64,000 nucleotides of DNA. It comes from Candidatus Poribacteria bacterium (lineage in GTDB: Bacteria > Poribacteria > WGA-4E > WGA-3G). The stretch lies in contig CAXXUA010000004.1 in the NCBI GenBank assembly GCA_963663765.2, positions 416,001-480,000 of the forward strand, in the 5' to 3' direction. The notes beneath the pieces were generated by a model. It did no database searches, was not told the origin of the DNA, and worked only from the letters and a program-made list of their open reading frames with translations. Shown one piece after another: positions 1,318 to 44,984 of this stretch (its first letter is position 1; each line of letters begins with the position of its first letter). The position numbers and the translations under genes are program-made.

Positions 1318-1964
1318 CTAATTTTGTTCTGCAGTTTTAAAACCGTAAATCTCAATTTCACGAATTCTGCCTGGTCTATGCATAGGTGTGCTAATATTGG
1401 AAATAACTGTTCTATCAAGCCTTCCTGAACCTAATAAGGTACTAAATGTAAATGTTTTTGACTTTTGAACAGGTGAATTAAAAGTTCTCAATATACGAAT
1501 CTTTATCTGATTAGTATAATATGGCTTCCTTAGTTTAAGGTCGATTATTTTAGACCTTACATCCCGCATCTCTATAATATGTTCCCAATTTTCTCCTTTT
1601 GCCCTTTTACCCTCATTCACATATACAACAAAATGTTTTAAATTATCCGAGTGAAGTATAATCCTATAGATTTTTTTCCTTTCTGGTAATGAAACAACCA
1701 CTATAGAATCATTTCGGAAAAATTCTGCATTATCCTTCGCTGCAGACACTTTTGCTGCATACTCTTTATTATTGATGTTAACGATAACGCTGCTTCTCCT
1801 ATAGTCTCAAAATTTCCATCAATCATTTCCGGACTCGTTGATTGTACTCCATCCATAAGTGCATAATTATTACTCCATTCTTGTGCTGAAAAAATCGTGC
1901 TACATCCAGTAATCATACAAGAAATACAAAACATAAAGAAGCAATCGAAACATTTATTGAACAT
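1318..1964 (-). pseudogene. frameshifted lipoprotein, paralog of 42853 and 43685 genes
   Basis: ORF 1701-1964 has a lipobox (ITGC) and QEWSNNYALMDGV; ORF 1318-1749 has LPERKKIYRIILHSDN and IREIEIYGFK; frame change near 1780-1790. Confidence 0.75.
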
Positions 1965-2021: not shown

Positions 2022-3671
2022 TTATACGGTTTGCAAGTTGCTTATAGAAAGCAACCAGGGTTCATCTACCAAAGCACGCAAAAATATCCCGCGTGCGCCA
2101 TTTAAGTCTCTGTCCATCTTGAGTCCCATGCTATCTTTTATTATCTTTCGTCCACCGAGTGATTTTCTAATCTCACCATTCCACGAAACTGTTTTTGATG
2201 TGTATGCTTCACAGACATCAATGACGAGACATCCAGTCTCTTTCGCTTTGTGCTTTAGAAAATGTTTGAATCTGTAGTGCGACAGTGTCAACATTTGTCG
2301 GGCAGACTTCTTGTGTAGTTTGCGGTTTCCACGCATTACCATATCTGAAGTCTCAAAAGTAGGGAGTAGGATAATATCAAAGGTATCCACAAGGAAACGT
2401 GCTATTTTATGATGCAACTCGTCAACAAGATATCTGATACGTTTTCTGATGCGATTTGCAGCACGTCTCATATTCTTGCGTGATTGTTGTGTCGCTTTTA
2501 TTGCACGGGATAAAAGATTATCAAGGTATGAACAAAGTCTTTGAATCCGATTGATAGCATGGTGTCCAAGCCATCCGAAACCACGCTCATGGAAATATGT
2601 GAGGAATGTTCTCACGCCAGGGTCTAAAGCAACAACACTTCCGTTTGGTTTTCGCTTCGGAGTTGTCACAGTATAGGAAACACAGAGATAGTATTTATCA
2701 TTCTCTTTCACGAGGCGTGAGTCACAGATATTATCAGGTAACATCTCTGACATTTTGAGATCACCAAGCACTGTGTGATAAACACCGCGAGGTTTTATAG
2801 CAGACTTTGGTATGAAAATACTATCTGATGGATGACGTTTGGATTTGAAAAAAACAGACTGATATTGACCTGTTTTCTTGCATTTTCGCTTTGCTTCTCG
2901 GACAGCAATACAAGCGTCACGGATAGCAACAGATTTCACTTGATACGGTGTTTCTTTGCTCCAATCAGGAAGATCGTGAAGAATACCTGTTTTTATCGCT
3001 TTCCAATTCGCTTTTGTGTCTGTTTCGTTCAACAAAGCAATTGTTTTATTATAAGTAAAACGTGCTGTGCCAAACCACTGACGCAGTGTTTCACGTTGTT
3101 CTGTTGTCGGATAAACTCTTATCTTCTTTGATTTTGTCACGGTAACTTCGGAGTCCGTGCATTCTGTAACTGAAGACGTGCAGGATTGCGAGAAGATCCG
3201 ACGTGAGTTCTTCTTGCGGACTGTGTTCTGTTTGATCGAGAACCACGAGTTCGCCACCGTTTTGTTCAATGAGGTATTGTATAAGGTCGATACCGAAGCG
3301 GGCGAGTCTATCCCGATGGGCAATAACAACTTGGAGCTTATCACCTTGCATAAGCCGTTCCAATAAGGTTCTAAGCCCTTTTCTTTTGAAGTTGATTCCG
3401 CTTCCGATGTCTCGGATAACTTCTGCTTCGGGGTAGATACTTCGCATATATTCAACTTGTCGTTCAAGGTCTTCTCTTTGCTTTGTGCTGGATACTCTGC
3501 AGTAGCAAACAGTTGCAATTGATGTGGATTTGCTTTTGATGTATCCGTCAACATCATAGCGTCTGTGTCCGCCTCCTGTGCGGATAATATCAATCTTTCC
3601 TTCATTTGCCAACCTCCGTAAATGGTCAGGTGTATAATCCAGCAGCTCACTTGCTTTGCGCGCTGATACAT
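2022..3671 (-). CDS. tnpB: TnpB RNA-guided endonuclease, Fanzor-like clade (start uncertain)
   Basis: KIRVYPT HTH start; RuvC-I VALDPGVRTF; CEAYTSKT; RuvC-III DRDLNGARGI. Confidence 0.9.
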   Translation of the reverse strand: MYQRAKQVSCWIIHLTIYGGWQMKERLILSAQEADTDAMMLTDTSKANPHQLQLFATAEYPAQSKEKTLNDKLNICEVSTPKQKLSETSEAESTSKEKGLEPYWNGLCKVISSKLLLPIGIDSPASVSTLYNTSLNKTVANSWFSIKQNTVRKKNSRRIFSQSCTSSVTECTDSEVTVTKSKKIRVYPTTEQRETLRQWFGTARFTYNKTIALLNETDTKANWKAIKTGILHDLPDWSKETPYQVKSVAIRDACIAVREAKRKCKKTGQYQSVFFKSKRHPSDSIFIPKSAIKPRGVYHTVLGDLKMSEMLPDNICDSRLVKENDKYYLCVSYTVTTPKRKPNGSVVALDPGVRTFLTYFHERGFGWLGHHAINRIQRLCSYLDNLLSRAIKATQQSRKNMRRAANRIRKRIRYLVDELHHKIARFLVDTFDIILLPTFETSDMVMRGNRKLHKKSARQMLTLSHYRFKHFLKHKAKETGCLVIDVCEAYTSKTVSWNGEIRKSLGGRKIIKDSMGLKMDRDLNGARGIFLRALVDEPWLLSISNLQTV

Positions 3672-14671: not shown

Positions 14672-15544
14672 ATGGAACAAACGATAGATTACACAAAACC
14701 CTTTATCGTTGATAAAAACTTAGGTGCGGCACTTGATATCGATAATACCTCACTACCACAAACAACCTCTGATGGAACACCTGTTGTGCCACCAACTCAG
14801 GAGCAGAAATACTTGTTTGATATGCGCGGGTGGCTTTTAATTCCCAGTGTGTTGTCTGGTGATGAACTTGAAGAAATGCAGGAATTCTGTCATCGTCTCC
14901 GCAACGATCCGGAATCTATTCCAGAGCATGAACGTTCACCGCTTGGGGGACCGATGCAGAAGTTAGCTGATCACCCCAATGTTGTTGGATTTCTGAACGA
15001 GTTTCTTGCTCATCCAGCTTTATCAAGTCCAGAATGTTACGGTTTCAGGATGGAATCGTGCCACATGTTCCACCGTACTGTAGGAGATGGTAATTTTGGT
15101 CCTCACAACGGGAATGGTCTGTTACGATTTCCCGGTGATTCGCATCTGTATCGGTGTATACCGGGTAGAGGATACAGTGGATTGACTCGGATTGTTTGGG
15201 AGCTCAACCCAGTCAAGTATAGACAAGGTGGAACACTTTTTATCACTGGAAGTCATAAGGCAGTTTATACTGCGCCAGAAAGTATCCGTACACCTGATTC
15301 CCCAATTTGGGATACATACGAGTGTCCAGCAGGTTCGTTGCTATTCTTCACAGAGGCGCTGACACATAGTACACACAAATGGACGAATGAGGAAAATAAC
15401 CGTTTAGCGATTTTTAGCTGCTATAACACTGTAAATAGTAAATGGCATCAATGGAATCCGCATCCGAAGTTGCTTGAGGAAATGCCGCCGAAACGACAAA
15501 CACTATATAGACCTGTTCGTGCAGCAAATAACTTGATTCAGTAA
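14672..15544 (+). CDS. PhyH-family Fe(II)/2OG enzyme with HxG motif
   Basis: YLFDMRGWL; GGTLFITGSHK; AGSLLFFTEALTH; first metal motif H-N-G. Confidence 0.8.
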   Translation: MEQTIDYTKPFIVDKNLGAALDIDNTSLPQTTSDGTPVVPPTQEQKYLFDMRGWLLIPSVLSGDELEEMQEFCHRLRNDPESIPEHERSPLGGPMQKLADHPNVVGFLNEFLAHPALSSPECYGFRMESCHMFHRTVGDGNFGPHNGNGLLRFPGDSHLYRCIPGRGYSGLTRIVWELNPVKYRQGGTLFITGSHKAVYTAPESIRTPDSPIWDTYECPAGSLLFFTEALTHSTHKWTNEENNRLAIFSCYNTVNSKWHQWNPHPKLLEEMPPKRQTLYRPVRAANNLIQ

Positions 15545-15665
15545 AGGTTTGTTATCATGATTAAACATTTTGGTTTTTCTTGAATTCTACTCCGATATGT
15601 GATAGAATTTTCTGCAATAGTTATACTAAGGACCTATCTACAATATTAGCAACTAAGGAAGTGCT

Positions 15666-16400
15666 ATGATGACAGCTAAAAATGGAAATCCACAACCATC
15701 TCCGAATATAGATGTCGGCTATCGCATAGGTCATGCACCGACTTTAGAAACGGATATATACTATCCAGAATCGGATGGAAAACCTATGGCAGAGACAGAC
15801 CTACATCGAGATGCAATGATAAAAACGATTCAAATACTTTCTGAGTATTACAAAGAATACTGGGATGTGTATATATCTGGTAATCTCATGATGTATTATA
15901 TCAAAGGCAATCCTCGGAAATCTATTTCACCTGATGTATTTGTCGCTTTTGGAGTCGGTAAAAAACAAAAAAGAACATACCAAATTTGGAATGAGGGTAA
16001 ACCACCAGACTTTGTCTTAGAGTTTTCAAGTGAAAATACTTATAGAAATGATCTCAATGCAAAAAAGGATTTATATGCGTCAATAGGAATAACTGAGTAT
16101 TTCCTTTACGACCCTGAAAGATGCCATTTACCATCACCGCTGATGGGATTTCGTCTTGTAGATGGTGAGTATGAAGACATTCCTCTTGATGCAGATGGTC
16201 ACCTGTTTTCAGATTCGTTAGGTTTGTCTTTGCGTTTACGAGGAGAGGGTCTGGGTTTCTATGATACTACAAAGGACAGATGGTTAGAAACACCCGCTGA
16301 AGCAGCAGCAATCCGAGCAGAACAAGAAGCTGCAGCAAGAAAGCAAGCAGAAGCAGAAATAGCAAGACTCCAAGAGGAAATTAATCAGTTAAAAGCATAA
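15666..16400 (+). CDS. Uma2 family endonuclease, copy 1
   Basis: YPESDGKPMAE; SPDVFV; LEFSS; GITEYFLYDP. Confidence 0.9.
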   Translation: MMTAKNGNPQPSPNIDVGYRIGHAPTLETDIYYPESDGKPMAETDLHRDAMIKTIQILSEYYKEYWDVYISGNLMMYYIKGNPRKSISPDVFVAFGVGKKQKRTYQIWNEGKPPDFVLEFSSENTYRNDLNAKKDLYASIGITEYFLYDPERCHLPSPLMGFRLVDGEYEDIPLDADGHLFSDSLGLSLRLRGEGLGFYDTTKDRWLETPAEAAAIRAEQEAAARKQAEAEIARLQEEINQLKA

Positions 16401-16480
16401 TTGACATTCTCAAATTCAAATCCTCAAGACTAATTGTAATTAGACTCTGTCGCTATTCTACATACTAAGGAGGTGCGATA

Positions 16481-17254
16481 ATGGCAGATAAAATAGGGAA
16501 ATCTAATAATTCATATATTTCTGATACCGAAAAACGCCTACGATATGCACCGACTTTAGAAACGGATATATACTATCCAGAATCGGATGGGAAACCTATG
16601 GCAGAGACAGACCTACATCGAGATGCAATGATAAAAACGATTCAAATACTTTCTGAGTATTACAAAGAATACTGGGATGTGTATATATCTGGTAATCTCA
16701 TGATGTATTATATCAAAGGTAATCCTCGGAAATCTATTTCACCTGATGTATTTGTCGCTTTTGGAGTCGGTAAAAAACAAAGAAGAACATACCAAATTTG
16801 GAATGAGGGTAAACCACCAGACTTTGTCTTAGAGTTTTCAAGTGAAAATACTTATAGAAATGATCTCAATGCAAAAAAGGATTTATATGCGTCAATAGGA
16901 ATAACTGAGTATTTCCTTTACGACCCTGAAAGATGCCATTTACCATCACCTCTGATGGGATTTCGTCTTGTAGATGGTGAGTATGTAGACATTCCTCTTG
17001 ATGGTGATGGTCACCTGTTTTCAGATACATTAGGTTTGTCATTACGTTTGCGAGGAGAGGGTCTGAGTTTCTATGATACTACAAAGGACAAATGGTTGGA
17101 AACACCCGCTGAAGCAGCAGCAATCCGAGCAGATGAGGAAAAAACACGAGCAGAGCAAGAAGCTGCACGAGCAGAACAAGAAGCTGCAGCAAGAAAGCAA
17201 GCAGAAGCAGAAATAGCAAGACTCCAAGAGGAAATTAATCAGTTAAAAGCATAA
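16481..17254 (+). CDS. Uma2 family endonuclease, copy 2
   Basis: Near-identical core to copy 1. Confidence 0.9.
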   Translation: MADKIGKSNNSYISDTEKRLRYAPTLETDIYYPESDGKPMAETDLHRDAMIKTIQILSEYYKEYWDVYISGNLMMYYIKGNPRKSISPDVFVAFGVGKKQRRTYQIWNEGKPPDFVLEFSSENTYRNDLNAKKDLYASIGITEYFLYDPERCHLPSPLMGFRLVDGEYVDIPLDGDGHLFSDTLGLSLRLRGEGLSFYDTTKDKWLETPAEAAAIRADEEKTRAEQEAARAEQEAAARKQAEAEIARLQEEINQLKA

Positions 17255-17334
17255 TTGACATTCTCAAATTCAAATCCTCAAGACTAATTGTAATTAGACC
17301 CTGTCGCTATTCTACATATTAAGGAGGCGCGATA

Positions 17335-18129
17335 ATGGCAGATAAAATAGGGAAATCTAATAATTCATATATTTCTGATACCGAAAAACGCCTACGATAT
17401 GCACCGACTTTAGAAACGGATATATACTATCCAGAATCGGATGGGAAACCTATGGCAGAGACAGACCTACATCGAGATGCAATGATAAAAACGATTCAAA
17501 TACTTTCTGAGTATTACAAAGAATACTGGGATGTGTATATATCTGGTAATCTCATGATGTATTATATCAAAGGTAATCCTCGGAAATCTATTTCACCTGA
17601 TGTATTTGTCGCTTTTGGAGTCGGTAAAAAACAAAGAAGAACATACCAAATTTGGAATGAAGGTAAACCGCCAGACTTTGTGTTAGAGTTTTCAAGTGAA
17701 AATACTTATAGAAATGATCTCAATACAAAAAAGGATTTATATGCGTCAATAGGAATTACTGAGTATTTCCTTCACGACCCTGAAAGACGCCATTTACCAT
17801 CACCTCTGATGGGATTTCGTCTTGTAGATGGTGAGTATGTAGACATTCCTCTTGATGCAGATGGTCACCTGTTTTCAGATACATTAGGTTTGTCATTGCG
17901 TTTGCGAGGAGAGGGTCTGGGTTTTTACGATAATACAACGGAAAAATGGTTGGAAACACCCGCTGAAGCAGCAGCAATCCGAGCAGATGAGGAAAAAACA
18001 CGAGCAGAACAGGAAGCTGCTGCAAGACAGACCGCTGAATCTATAGCACTGCAAGAAGCCGCTGCAAGAAAGCAAGCAGAAGCAGAAATAGCAAGACTCC
18101 AAGAAGAAATTAATCAGTTAAAAGCATAA
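17335..18129 (+). CDS. Uma2 family endonuclease, copy 3
   Basis: Near-identical core. Confidence 0.9.
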   Translation: MADKIGKSNNSYISDTEKRLRYAPTLETDIYYPESDGKPMAETDLHRDAMIKTIQILSEYYKEYWDVYISGNLMMYYIKGNPRKSISPDVFVAFGVGKKQRRTYQIWNEGKPPDFVLEFSSENTYRNDLNTKKDLYASIGITEYFLHDPERRHLPSPLMGFRLVDGEYVDIPLDADGHLFSDTLGLSLRLRGEGLGFYDNTTEKWLETPAEAAAIRADEEKTRAEQEAAARQTAESIALQEAAARKQAEAEIARLQEEINQLKA

Positions 18130-18209
18130 TTGACATTCCCAAATTCAAATCCTCAAGACTAATTGTAATTAGACCCTATCGCTATTCTACATATTAAGGA
18201 GGCGCGATA

Positions 18210-19025
18210 ATGGCAGATAAAATAGGGAAACCTAATACTTCATATATTACTGATACCGAAAAACGCCTGCGATACGCACCGACTTTAGAAACGGATATAT
18301 ACTATCCAGAATCGGATGGGAAACCTATGGCAGAGACAGACCTACATCGAGATGCAATGATAAAAACGATTCAAATACTTTCTGAGTATTACAAAGAATA
18401 CTGGGATGTGTATATATCTGGTAATCTCATGATGTATTATATCAAAGGTAATCCTCGGAAATCTATTTCACCTGATGTATTTGTCGCTTTTGGAGTCGGT
18501 AAAAAACAAAGAAGAACATACCAAATTTGGAATGAAGGTAAACCGCCAGACTTTGTCTTAGAGTTTTCAAGTGAAAATACTTATAGAAATGATCTCAATG
18601 CAAAAAAGGACTTATATGCGTCAATAGGAATAACTGAGTATTTCCTTCACGACCCTGAAAGACGCCATTTACCATCACCACTGATGGGATTTCGTCTTGT
18701 AGATGGTGAGCATGCAGACATTCCTCCCGATGCAGATGGTCACCTGTTTTCAGATACATTAGGTTTGTCATTGCGTTTGCGAGGAGAGGGTCTGGGTTTT
18801 TACGATAATACAACGGAAAAATGGTTGGAAACACCCGCTGAAGCAGCAGCAATCCGAGCTGATGAGGAAAAAACACGAGCAGAGCAAGAAGCTGCACGAG
18901 CAGAACAAGAAACTGCTGCAAGAAAGACAGCTGAATCTTTAGCACAACAAGAAGCAGATGCAAGAAAGCAAGCAGAAGCAGAAATAGCAAGACTTCAAGA
19001 GGAAATTAATCAGTTAAAAGCATAA
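18210..19025 (+). CDS. Uma2 family endonuclease, copy 4
   Basis: Near-identical core. Confidence 0.9.
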   Translation: MADKIGKPNTSYITDTEKRLRYAPTLETDIYYPESDGKPMAETDLHRDAMIKTIQILSEYYKEYWDVYISGNLMMYYIKGNPRKSISPDVFVAFGVGKKQRRTYQIWNEGKPPDFVLEFSSENTYRNDLNAKKDLYASIGITEYFLHDPERRHLPSPLMGFRLVDGEHADIPPDADGHLFSDTLGLSLRLRGEGLGFYDNTTEKWLETPAEAAAIRADEEKTRAEQEAARAEQETAARKTAESLAQQEADARKQAEAEIARLQEEINQLKA

Positions 19026-19105
19026 TTGACATTCTCAAATTCAAATCCTCAAGACTAATTGTAATTAGACCCTGTCGCTATTCTACATATTAAGGAGGCG
19101 CGATA

Positions 19106-19978
19106 ATGGCAGATAAAATAGGGAAATCTAATAATTCATATATTTCTGATACCGAAAAACGCCTACGATATGCACCGACTTTAGAAACGGATATATACTA
19201 TCCAGAATCGGATGGGAAACCTATGGCAGAGACAGACCTACATCGAGATGCAATGATAAAAACGATTCAAATACTTTCTGAGTATTACAAAGAATACTGG
19301 GATGTGTATATATCTGGTAATCTCATGATGTATTATATCAAAGGTAATCCTCGGAAATCTATTTCACCTGATGTATTTGTCGCTTTTGGAGTCGGTAAAA
19401 AACAAAGAAGAACATACCAAATTTGGAATGAAGGTAAACCGCCAGACTTTGTGTTAGAGTTTTCAAGTGAAAATACTTATAGAAATGATCTCAATATAAA
19501 AAAGGATTTATATGCGTCAATAGGAATTACTGAGTATTTCCTTCACGACCCTGAAAGACGCCATTTACCATCACCTCTGATGGGATTTCGTCTTGTAGAT
19601 GGTGAGTATGTAGACATTCCTCTTGATGCAGATGGTCACCTGTTTTCAGATACATTAGGTTTGTCATTGCGTTTGCGAGGAGAGGGTCTGGGTTTTTACG
19701 ATAATACAACGGACAAATGGTTGGAAACACCCGCTGAAGCAGCAGCAATCCGAGCTGATGAGGAAAAAACACGAGCAGAGCAAGAAGCTGCACGAGCAGA
19801 GCAAGAAACTGCACGAGCAGAGCAAGAAACTGCACGAGCAGAACAAGAAACTGCTGCAAGACAGACAGCTGAATCTTTAGCACAACAAGAAGCAGATGCA
19901 AGAAAGCAAGCAGAAACAGAAAACGCACGGCTACAAAAGGAAATTGAGCGGTTGAAGGCACTAACCACATCCATCTAA
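19106..19978 (+). CDS. Uma2 family endonuclease, copy 5
   Basis: Near-identical core; longest tail with a distinct C-terminus. Confidence 0.9.
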   Translation: MADKIGKSNNSYISDTEKRLRYAPTLETDIYYPESDGKPMAETDLHRDAMIKTIQILSEYYKEYWDVYISGNLMMYYIKGNPRKSISPDVFVAFGVGKKQRRTYQIWNEGKPPDFVLEFSSENTYRNDLNIKKDLYASIGITEYFLHDPERRHLPSPLMGFRLVDGEYVDIPLDADGHLFSDTLGLSLRLRGEGLGFYDNTTDKWLETPAEAAAIRADEEKTRAEQEAARAEQETARAEQETARAEQETAARQTAESLAQQEADARKQAETENARLQKEIERLKALTTSI

Positions 19979-42521: not shown

Positions 42522-42852
42522 TAGTGGTTGTAATAACATTTTCTCAACCTATTGACACGGGTTGCGAACCTACCATAGACGTCAATTGAAGAAAAATGTG
42601 TTTGCGTTCTCTGTAGGATCGACCTCTCGGTTGTGACCGTATGGAGACCATATATAATAACAGTTGTGACCAGGAGGTCGCTCCTACCAAATAAAAGAAT
42701 AGAATACGTAGTAGAAATGTAAACTTATTTTCAAATTTCACTATAACTGCTTTTGCTCATTGATAGAAAAGATATGGAATAATAAGTATAGATTTGATAT
42801 ACTATAGAAATATATACCAATTTCATGGTGATCTTTACATAGGAGTTTAACA

Positions 42853-43545
42853 ATGCTCAGACGATTCATTTTATCCTGCTTATTTATCGGTTTTATCGTA
42901 TTTTCAATAGGTTGCCAAGCTATACTAACAGAACAAGTATGGAGTGAAAACTACGCACTTTTGAATGGAGTTACCTCATCAAGTCCACAGATGATTGATG
43001 GCGATATTGCAACTATTGGAGAAACTCAACATCTTAGTAACCAAAGGTTTGCTGGGTGGGGTACTGGTGTTTCAATCAAATTACCTGAAAAAAAGAACAT
43101 CCGTAAAATCGTTATACATTCCGACAATATCAAAAAACTAATTGTCTATGCTGATAAAGGTGGGACTGCTTTATCCCAGACAGATTGGCACATTATTAAA
43201 GAGGTCAGAGGCATAAAAAAATATCCGATTGTAATACCAATTTTACATTCTTTTCCAGTCGACCATATAAGAATTGTCGTTTCTGACACTTCAGACGATG
43301 GAATTCAACGACGACAAGAAAAAGCTGAATTCTACAGTCAAACTTCAACAAGAGATAGACAATTTATGGGAAATAACTTCAGTAATAGGATGAGAGGGAG
43401 AAGGAGTTTTTCTGCACGAATAGGTGAAATTGAACTCTATGGATACAAAGCCAAAACAGATGAGCCAATCAATACAGAAAACAAACGTGAAGAAGAACTT
43501 GATGCAATTCTTGAACCAAATCAAGATACTTCCAAATTTGAATAG
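42853..43545 (+). CDS. lipoprotein, discoidin/F5-8-like fold
   Basis: Lipobox SIGC; WSENYALLNGV; IDGD; IGEIELYGY. Confidence 0.75.
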   Translation: MLRRFILSCLFIGFIVFSIGCQAILTEQVWSENYALLNGVTSSSPQMIDGDIATIGETQHLSNQRFAGWGTGVSIKLPEKKNIRKIVIHSDNIKKLIVYADKGGTALSQTDWHIIKEVRGIKKYPIVIPILHSFPVDHIRIVVSDTSDDGIQRRQEKAEFYSQTSTRDRQFMGNNFSNRMRGRRSFSARIGEIELYGYKAKTDEPINTENKREEELDAILEPNQDTSKFE

Positions 43546-43684
43546 TTATTATTGAAAATCAGAATACTGAAATTATAAGAAAGTTGATTTAGTTGACATT
43601 TCGGTTATACTAAAGTTATAATGTTAATACTTGACAGAATTAGTCAATAATTTTCAAATTCATTACACACTCGGAGACAATAAA

Positions 43685-44377
43685 ATGAATATTAGATTTG
43701 TTCTAATGATCCTCGTATTTTGTGTTTGCGTACTTACCGCAGGTTGTAGTGCTTTGTTATCTCAACAGGAATGGAGCGATAACTATGCACTTCTCGACGG
43801 TGTTCACTCAACGAATATACAAATGACAGATGGTGATTTAAACACAGTTGGTGTAACTGGCTCCTCAGATGTCCCAAGAAATCGTGTAGGTAGAAACTCC
43901 AGTTCATCTCCTGAAGTAATCATCACCTTGCCTGAGAAAAAAGTCATACGACGTATTGTGATCCATTCAGACAATATAAAGAAATTTAACATATACGCAG
44001 ATAAGGGTGGAAGTGCCTTATCAAAAACTGACTGGCAATTAATAAAAGAAGAAAAAAGCGTCAAGTCCGGTCCTATTGTTGTTCCAGTCTTATACGCATA
44101 TCCTACAGACAAAATACGGATTGTGGTCTTAGGAACAACCGATGATGGTGCAATGACCCGTAGAGAAGTTGCACGTGGCGTCCAAAGTGCACTTCTAAGC
44201 TCACAAAGTGGTTCCACCTGAGGCACTGCGGACTGTGGGACTGGAGGTCCCACCCGTATCCGCGCAGCTGCAAAAATCAGTGAAATTGAACTGTTTGGGT
44301 ACAAAACCGTAAGCAATACAGATGATGACCCGATTGACGATCCCCAGCAAAAACAAATTGATTCTTTGCTGTTTTAG
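43685..44377 (+). CDS. lipoprotein with in-frame TGA (44219-44221), candidate selenoprotein
   Basis: Lipobox TAGC; frame stays open 51 codons past the TGA and encodes ISEIELFGYK, matching both paralogs. Confidence 0.7.
44222..44271 (+). promoter_or_regulatory. bacterial SECIS-like hairpin
   Basis: GTGGGAC-TGGAG-GTCCCAC (44235-44253) inside GCGGA/TCCGC; G-containing loop about 21 nt after the UGA. Confidence 0.6.
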
Positions 44378-44486
44378 TTGAACATGTTTTAGTTGAACAT
44401 TAGATACTCAGTTTCCAGTTAAGGTTATTTCTACTTGGGAATTGCTTTTTACTGGAAACTGACATCAAAATTACATATTTCCAACC

Positions 44487-44984
44487 ATGAAATACTTCGC
44501 TTATGGATCAAATCTTAATATTAAACAGATGACGTGGAGGTGTCAGGACGCTGACCCCTTAGGTGAGTTTACGTTGGAGGGGTATCAACTCGTTTTTCGG
44601 TATTATGCGGATATTGTTCCTGTGGCGGGAAAGTCTGTGAAAGGTGGTCTTTGGGAAATTTCAAAAGACGATGAGAAAGTCCTTGACAGTTATGAAGCGT
44701 ATCCACACCTATATGGAAAATACTACAAGAAAGACATCATGTACTATAGGATGCACGATAATGTCCGGCATTTAGAATTACCATCACCTGGATACCTTGC
44801 GGGAATGCTTGAAGGTATGGAAAATTTCGGTTTATCACCATTAGAAGATCTAAATCACAATCTTGGAAACGAACCCACTGATAAAACAAAAAGAAAAGGC
44901 GATCTTTTGCAACCAGCATTACAGATGATCGCAGACTCCATGGGACTTTCAATTGCAGAGGATGATTCAATCAATATTGAGTAA
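44487..44984 (+). CDS. gamma-glutamylcyclotransferase (AIG2/GGCT-like)
   Basis: YFAYGSNL; LDSYE; PSPGY. Confidence 0.85.
   Translation: MKYFAYGSNLNIKQMTWRCQDADPLGEFTLEGYQLVFRYYADIVPVAGKSVKGGLWEISKDDEKVLDSYEAYPHLYGKYYKKDIMYYRMHDNVRHLELPSPGYLAGMLEGMENFGLSPLEDLNHNLGNEPTDKTKRKGDLLQPALQMIADSMGLSIAEDDSINIE

Follow-up and report, generated by a model that had tools for sequence, protein, structure and literature searches.

A candidate selenoprotein family of discoidin-like lipoproteins in one genus of Candidatus Poribacteria

Background

Bacterial selenoprotein genes of the SelB type specify selenocysteine (Sec, U) by an in-frame UGA that is followed, within the coding sequence, by a stem-loop, the selenocysteine insertion sequence (SECIS), with G in its first loop positions. 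The published consensus for the bacterial element (bSECIS) comprises a loop of 3-9 nucleotides (nt), a stem of 4-16 bp, G in the first two loop positions and a spacing of 16-37 nt, with an energy criterion of a minimum free energy (MFE) of at most -7.5 kcal/mol; a 2026 review catalogues 119 prokaryotic selenoprotein families or subfamilies in its Table 1, and most characterised selenoproteins have a thioredoxin-like fold (PMC13188914). Here we analyse a gene of a Candidatus Poribacteria bacterium, located in a stretch of 64,000 nt (assembly GCA_963663765.2, contig CAXXUA010000004.1, positions 416,001 to 480,000 of the forward strand; hereafter the window, in which all positions are numbered), whose coding sequence (43685..44377, + strand; ATG at 43685, TAG at 44375-44377) contains an in-frame TGA at codon 179 (44219..44221, + strand). 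By far the best reading of this codon, and one that we consider highly probable, is that it is decoded as selenocysteine (Sec179) in a conserved lipoprotein gene, to give a product of 230 residues including Sec.

The candidate shares with other bacterial SelB/SECIS selenoprotein genes (including fdhA, selD and the AhpC/TSA, ThiF/MoeB and GrdB-like genes of the same genome) the UGA followed by a coding stem-loop with G in its first loop positions, the presence of the Sec machinery and, in most of its copies, a nearby Cys; it differs from them in that its Sec would be placed in a flexible beta-sandwich loop, not in an active site of the thioredoxin-fold or metal type, and in that the family is new, no Cys form of it was found, and the position of the Cys partner is variable. 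The other close comparison is with CBM32 and F5/8 type C domains (2xqx, the CBM32 of S. pneumoniae EndoD; 3nng; APC10/Doc1), which are alike in predicted fold; unlike these, the candidate is a stand-alone lipoprotein rather than an enzyme module, carries the putative Sec, and has no match to them at the level of sequence. The decoding would be the ordinary bacterial mechanism; what is new is the family, the fold class, the lack of a Cys form and the mobile Cys partner.

Results and Discussion

Conservation and origin of the in-frame TGA

The read-through protein was searched against 112 genomes of the family to which the bacterium belongs, 40 of them in the genus of the window (g1) and 72 in five other genera. 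Each of the 35 best matches contains exactly one in-frame TGA; these copies are 52-89% identical to the protein of the window and are spread over 30 of the 40 genomes of the genus, with extra copies in a few of them (four in G062, two in G051 and two in G052), and seven further loci are duplicates of the 35 distinct copies that were extracted. All of the TGAs fall in a single column of the MAFFT alignment (35/35), so the orthologue comparison proposed in the first-pass annotation, which had put the gene forward as a selenoprotein from its sequence, bears that proposal out. Outside the genus (72 genomes), the search yielded no TGA copy, except for one broken-looking match that has both a TGA and a TAA. 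Independent contigs likewise answer the proposed check for a sequencing error: the same TGA is found in a contig from a DNA run of another study (covering 43651-44600) and in a 549-nt contig from a metatranscriptome library (43800-44348). The latter confirms the sequence and leaves transcription unproven, since RNA libraries can contain DNA. The RNA-library contigs of runs X8 and X16 cover the gene in part and do not bridge the TGA, and the parts that they leave uncovered are uninformative.

Maximum-likelihood analysis of 52 family members, 17 of them TGA-less, placed all 35 TGA copies and two TGA-less genes in one clade with support of 100/96, and the TGA state requires two changes on the tree. 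The two TGA-less genes within the clade (L062 and L063), whose sister is the TGA copy L020, have CGA (Arg) at the Sec site, which on this topology is a secondary loss by one transition, from TGA to CGA. A non-Cys sense codon in orthologues, together with the lack of a conserved hairpin, had been named in the first-pass annotation as an observation that would speak against Sec; such a codon is found in L062 and L063 and in none of the 35 TGA copies, and the Arg of these two genes does not refute the Sec reading, because the tree nests both within the TGA clade. The converse possibility, that the TGA of L020 is a fresh nonsense mutation of CGA, was rejected: L020 is nested among the U-containing copies and the Arg forms are derived.

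The same GGACT-family gene lies 3' of the candidate in 23 of the 35 loci, and either this gene or the ParA/NUBPL-type gene beyond it in 25; therefore, the core of the clade is orthologous by position. A paralogue is adjacent in 12 of the loci. Together with the tree, this distribution indicates that the putative Sec form is of single origin within one genus of Candidatus Poribacteria, followed by duplication and one loss. A blastn-short search of the genome with 80 nt flanking the U codon found no donor segment, so nothing points to another selenoprotein gene as the source from which loop and hairpin were copied.

The coding frame beyond the UGA

The open reading frame (ORF) was originally described as stopping at the TGA, with a continuation of 51 codons and a tail that resembles the C-termini of two paralogues, and this description is accurate. 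The frame remains open for 51 codons past 44219-44221, up to the TAG at 44375-44377, and encodes the last beta-strand of the domain, AAAKISEIELFGYK (44264..44305, + strand), which matches ARIGEIELYGYK of the upstream paralogue (42853-43545) and GRIREIEIYGFK of a third, frameshifted copy of the family (1318-1964, - strand). In alignment A3, whose 35 rows comprise both Sec copies and TGA-less relatives, residues E200, E202, G205 and Y206 of this EIExYGY strand are invariant and the codons vary synonymously (Ile as ATT, ATC or ATA, Tyr as TAT or TAC, Gly as all four); by this pattern of substitution, the frame 3' of the UGA is under protein-level selection.

In the predicted AlphaFold model, the last strand (residues 197-207) lies within the beta-sandwich, and a product ending at 178 residues would be without it, whereas all TGA-less relatives encode it. 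Among the 120 best of 284 database matches, 58 are full-length and 62 lack the last strand, and 59 of those 62 stop exactly at the motif that precedes U; where the source names them, the shortened entries are annotated as 'hypothetical protein' of Candidatus Poribacteria. The entries that end before U extend the TGA clade into metagenomes and show that the family has been annotated in truncated form: public gene calls truncate the protein, and its last strand is missing from databases.

The stem-loop downstream of the UGA

The UGA is followed immediately by a SECIS-like stem-loop (44222..44269, + strand) that consists of an apical hairpin, GTGGGACT-GGA-GGTCCCAC at 44235-44253 (stem 44235-44242/44246-44253, apical loop GGA at 44243-44245), and of lower stems at 44227-44232/44259-44264 (TGCGGA/TCCGCG) and 44222-44224/44267-44269 (+ strand), as predicted by folding. 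This is the GC-rich hairpin, with a G-containing loop about 21 nt downstream, that the first-pass annotation had reported, and its loop does start at 21 nt. With a stem of 8 bp, a GGA loop, a spacing of 21 nt from the UGA and -11.7 kcal/mol, the hairpin of the window agrees with all four published bSECIS criteria; its 60-nt context, folded with the apical hairpin enforced, has -23.2 kcal/mol. Of the 35 copies, 17 pass the criteria if the bulge-free stem is taken alone, and 32 do so once the 60-nt context is included in the fold. The loop, taken as one of 5 nt, starts 17, 20 or 23 nt 3' of the UGA in every copy (35/35), and the spacing from the UGA to the closed apical loop is 17-24 nt.

Two types of hairpin can be distinguished: the first is GGGAC-YGGWG-GTCCC, with the stem variants GGGCC/GGCCC, GGGGC/GCCCC and GAGAC/GTCTC; the second, (G/C)GGC-AGTTC-GCC(T/G), is found in one clade of 11 copies, in which the encoded peptide is also different (GGAVR or SLAAVR in place of GTGGP). 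Compensatory changes in the stem, for which the first-pass annotation had suggested looking, were observed in a gapless alignment of 29 columns with a 7-bp stem. Paired cells amount to 86.6% compared to 73.9% in shuffles, and the covariation score is 0.495 compared to 0.262; neither value is reached by any of 500 shuffles, and when the 3' partner is slid by 1-3 columns, paired cells reach at most 54.8%. Both sides change in pair 11-19 (AU 17, GC 11, CG 1, GU 1) and in pair 9-21 (GC 14, GU 6, AU 5, CG 5). Pair 11-19 joins the first base of motif codon 2 (Thr, Pro or Ala) with the third, synonymous position of a Gly codon (GGT, GGG or GGC), a pattern such as a constraint on the RNA predicts.

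Selenocysteine machinery and other selenoprotein genes of the genome

The genome encodes all of the Sec machinery that the first-pass annotation had asked for (selA, selB, selC and selD). The selA match scores 545 bits; selB is present and is directly followed by tRNA-Sec, which was found both by ARAGORN and by Rfam RF01852 (78.5 bits); and selD carries an in-frame TGA of its own and, after it, the stem-loop GCTC-CGGGU-GAGC, whose loop lies 16 nt 3' of the UGA. Across the family, selB is found in 107 of the 112 genomes; two of the 30 genomes with TGA copies have no selB match, and these are 81% and 73% complete. Reassignment of TGA was considered and rejected: TGA serves as an ordinary stop codon, at which 273 of the 1513 open frames with 400 codons or more end, and the genome has prfB.

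The genome was scanned for TGA codons with a hairpin and a frame open on both sides; 27 candidates were kept, 10 of which were run against Pfam. Sorted by stem score, the lipoprotein gene comes second among these 27, and two of the controls share its GGA loop. Similar hairpins accompany the TGA in at least nine further genes of recognised selenoprotein types. The scan and Pfam identify FdhA (TGA in the motif SRAUH); four AhpC/TSA proteins, three with U-x-x-C and one with U-G-C (of two further loci, C5:1756190 is a duplicate of the one with U-G-C, and C5:472220 is outside the set run against Pfam); a ThiF/rhodanese protein with Sec at the MoeB-type position; a GrdB-like protein (by its Pfam match); a WD40 protein (GMTUGAC); and an F5/8 type C protein (KWCUGP). 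The loops of the scan candidates run against Pfam (GGA, AGU, GUU, GUC, GGUC, GGC or GUA) start 17-24 nt 3' of the UGA. This sponge symbiont is predicted to have a large, largely extracytoplasmic selenoproteome (loci L065-L074, on several contigs) with hairpins 16-24 nt 3' of the UGA.

Several of the AhpC/TSA-type selenoprotein candidates carry signal peptides or lipoboxes. Outside the window, a frame of 520 residues without a Pfam family (L072; G000:C4:880316-881878, - strand) has its TGA in DDESCUANGK and a 9-bp hairpin with the loop GGTC 24 nt 3' of the TGA.

The Sec loop and its cysteine partner

The loop that would contain Sec is rich in Gly, Ser and Thr, probably flexible, and located just 5' of the last strand, with the consensus S-G-S/T-S/T-U-G; the motif that precedes Sec is S/T-G-S/G-S/T-U in 32 of the 35 copies. 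By the topology of discoidin domains, this loop presumably lies at the ligand-binding end of the sandwich. The U-x4-C pair (STUGTADC) that the first-pass annotation had pointed out is correct for the gene of the window, but it does not hold for the family, in which the spacing is not conserved and the Cys moves between subclades and is missing from 7/35 copies. A Cys within 10 residues of U is found in 28 of the 35 copies, in four classes of offset: +5 in 11 copies (one of them with a second Cys at +9) or +6 in one copy; +1 in five copies; -6 in six copies; and -8 in five copies. Besides the Cys of the lipobox, a Cys more than 10 residues from U occurs in only three copies. The Cys thus stays near Sec yet shifts between subclades, as would be expected of a Sec-Cys redox pair within a flexible loop. 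The loops of the TGA-less relatives contain no Cys, as had been stated for the paralogues. P0087, a full-length relative, does have a Cys, but four residues past the DD motif and outside the loop. If the pairing is real, the wandering Cys constitutes a natural experiment on the evolution of the Sec-Cys couple.

Lipoprotein nature and predicted fold

Residues 17-21 of the product form a lipobox (LTAG-C), the pattern by which bacterial lipoproteins are generally recognised, at the end of a signal peptide (43685..43747, + strand). Cys21 is invariant and Gly20 nearly so in alignment A3, and the lipobox with its invariant Cys identifies the candidate as a probable bacterial lipoprotein. The searches of Pfam and NCBIfam (E up to 1) returned no family for either the candidate or its paralogue, and specifically no match to PF00754 or PF22633; a TIGR01901 match below the cut-off (E 0.021) was disregarded. 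A sequence-profile search of the PDB likewise gave nothing significant, the best match being neuropilin-1 (E 0.55). The AlphaFold model (mean pLDDT, the predicted local distance difference test, of 68.4; 80-90 in the core strands and poor in residues 27-72) has 40 Foldseek matches with E at most 0.001, of which the best is 2xqx_A (E 6.2e-5); the top folds are CBM32 modules, F5/8 type C domains, APC10/Doc1 and the discoidin domain of muskelin. These matches indicate a CBM32/discoidin-like beta-sandwich, of the galactose-binding-domain-like type, that is not filed under PF00754. The mature lipoprotein of about 210 residues would be glycan-binding-like, carbohydrate binding being predicted from the fold. 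The neighbours of the paralogue in the ESM Atlas include F5/8 type C clusters at 0.91, which serves as a lead only.

Weighing of alternative readings

If the UGA is decoded as Sec, the coding-sequence stem-loop 17-24 nt downstream would recruit SelB and Sec-tRNA(Sec) by the standard bacterial route, and insertion of Sec at codon 179 would be needed for the last beta-strand to be made. Sec179 may then form a reversible selenenylsulfide with the nearby Cys or, in the copies that have no such Cys, with an outside thiol, and would thereby provide a redox-active or thiol- or metal-reactive loop on an extracytoplasmic, glycan-binding-like protein.

Several observations weigh against this reading. 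Some concern the hairpin, whose energy discriminates poorly: the mean z-score relative to shuffled sequences is -1.3, and it is below -2 in only 11 of the 35 copies. On the bulge-free stem, 18 of the 35 copies miss the criterion of -7.5 kcal/mol, and L054 also misses that for the stem. The same G/R-rich region also folds in 16 TGA-less paralogues, which have a mean MFE of -12.9 compared to -15.9 for the TGA copies and a best-stem score of 12.1 compared to 16.3. Excess synonymous constraint over the hairpin was not found (rank 51 of 147 windows), and an Rfam scan of 44100-44400 with E up to 10 gave two chance matches and no SECIS family. The covariation results may be biased in favour of the hairpin, since its loop motif served as the anchor of the alignment and the structure came from the same sequences. 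Other observations concern the residue itself. Nearly all accepted selenoprotein families have Cys forms. Here, the 120 best of 284 database matches include 58 full-length relatives, and not one of these has Cys in the loop; none of the 17 TGA-less rows of the tree has Cys at the Sec site; and a search limited to residues 160-215 found no Cys form. No Cys lies within 10 residues of U in 7 of the 35 copies, and the Arg of L062 and L063 implies that Sec is dispensable in at least one lineage. The structural model is uncertain at the key part, with a pLDDT below 50 for residues 176-187, which make up the Sec loop.

The alternative that survives best is that the UGA is read through without Sec, for example by a near-cognate tRNA (for Trp, Cys or Arg), while the hairpin merely slows termination, to give a full-length protein free of selenium. 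It would accommodate four of the observations above, namely a hairpin energy only modestly better than in TGA-less paralogues, no Cys-form homologue among the relatives searched, Arg at the codon in two nested genes and no SECIS match in Rfam. Nevertheless, we consider it improbable: the full Sec machinery is encoded in the genome; the spacing and G-containing loop of the hairpin are the same as in the FdhA, SelD and peroxiredoxin-like genes here; in 28 of the 35 copies the one further Cys of the mature protein keeps close to the UGA site, which fits a Sec-Cys pair; and TGA persists in 35/35 copies, although a sense codon would be a simpler solution than a leaky stop. We know of no such programmed read-through in bacteria.

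Less probable still, and in our view very hard to sustain, is that translation really ends at the UGA, with a truncated lipoprotein of 178 residues as the product and the downstream frame as a relic. In its favour, the gene calls behind 59 of the 62 shortened database entries end at this point, and TGA is a normal stop in this genome; but a relic would decay, whereas these 51 codons remain free of stops and show protein-level conservation across 35 copies that diverge by as much as about 48%, and the truncated product would be without the last strand of the modelled beta-sandwich, which all TGA-less relatives encode. That the TGA is due to faulty sequencing or assembly, or to a nonsense mutation of a single strain, is refuted by the same codon in 30 independently assembled genomes and in the contigs of a DNA run and an RNA library from other studies.

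Beyond the decoding of UGA 44219-44221 as Sec, a more far-reaching and rather doubtful idea is that Sec was born de novo, without replacing a Cys, in a loop on the surface of a lectin-like lipoprotein, making it an extracytoplasmic 'selenolectin' in which Sec, alone or with the relocating Cys, would form reversible, covalent selenenylsulfide bonds with thiols of the sponge matrix or of partner proteins, or bind soft metals. If so, Sec would serve binding and not catalysis, and the protein may act together with the secreted Sec-containing lipoproteins of AhpC/TSA type.

Comparison with catalogued and other candidate selenoproteins

The first-pass annotation did not recognise the family among known selenoproteins, and we concur: it has no Pfam or NCBIfam match and is not among the 119 catalogued families, Table 1 of the 2026 review containing no discoidin-like, CBM (carbohydrate-binding module) or such lipoprotein family (PMC13188914), a comparison to which families defined only by cd or PTHR models and the supplementary lists of BSepDB and deep-Sep are external. 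The literature on selenoproteins of Poribacteria, on discoidin or CBM selenoproteins and on selenoproteomes of sponge symbionts yielded nothing on the candidate family. Two catalogued families, selenobacteriocin (SGUG) and DUF523 (SxSUG), also have Sec between Ser and Gly (Table 1, PMC13188914), a likeness that extends to the short motif only; the Pfam and NCBIfam searches gave no match of the candidate to TIGR04081 (selenobacteriocin) or PF04463 (DUF523). The candidate thus has a non-enzyme-like, membrane-anchored fold of carbohydrate-binding type, outside the usual folds of selenoproteins. Standard pipelines, as described for deep-Sep (PMC12013277), depend on Sec/Cys pairs and would miss this family, for which no Cys form was found. 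The occurrence of such a gene in uncultivated sponge symbionts with a rich selenoproteome bears on selenium use in the sponge holobiont.

The F5/8 type C protein detected in the genome scan is a second discoidin-type selenoprotein candidate, encoded outside the window (G000:C6:336790-337464; L073, L077), a secreted protein of 225 residues with a PF00754 match (E 6.7e-8) and the motif KWCUGP. Two tandem paralogues with KWCCGP adjoin it (region G000:C6:334552-337464), and its TGA is kept in 16 of the 48 matches listed from 41 related genomes; PF00754 is absent from the table of the 2026 catalogue (PMC13188914). Both candidates are small proteins of discoidin-like type with an in-frame TGA, and the second has a similar C-terminal strand (GEIEYFG); it differs in having Sec in its N-terminal half and in having Cys paralogues, unlike the present family. 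No homology between the two was detectable by hhalign (probability 0.9%).

Local features of the gene and the window

A likely ribosome-binding site (GGAG, 43672..43675, + strand) lies 9 nt 5' of the ATG, as judged from its sequence, and the orthologues, which were likewise translated through the TGA, start at the equivalent Met. Farther upstream is a promoter-like site, TTGACA-18-TATAAT (43593..43622, + strand), assigned by its match to the sigma-70 consensus at 12/12 positions; it is the top of 11 sites within 42600-44600. This perfect match, in a genome of 40% G+C, stands directly 5' of the candidate gene. A direct duplication of 15 nt, in two copies, spans the stop codon of the gene (44371..44400, + strand); contigs of runs X7 and X8 have a 15-nt deletion at 44370, in which one copy of the duplication is gone, and the stop is retained either way.

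The upstream tandem paralogue (42853..43545, + strand) is a TGA-less member of the same lipoprotein family with 230 residues and belongs to a separate clade in the tree. The third member of the family in the window (1318-1964, - strand) consists of two overlapping frames, 1701-1964 and 1318-1749, and is either a frameshifted pseudogene or the result of an assembly error; it adjoins an ORF of 549 residues (2022-3671). Elsewhere in the window, six successive ORFs of 244-290 residues with regular spacing (14672-19978, + strand) resemble a tandem gene array.

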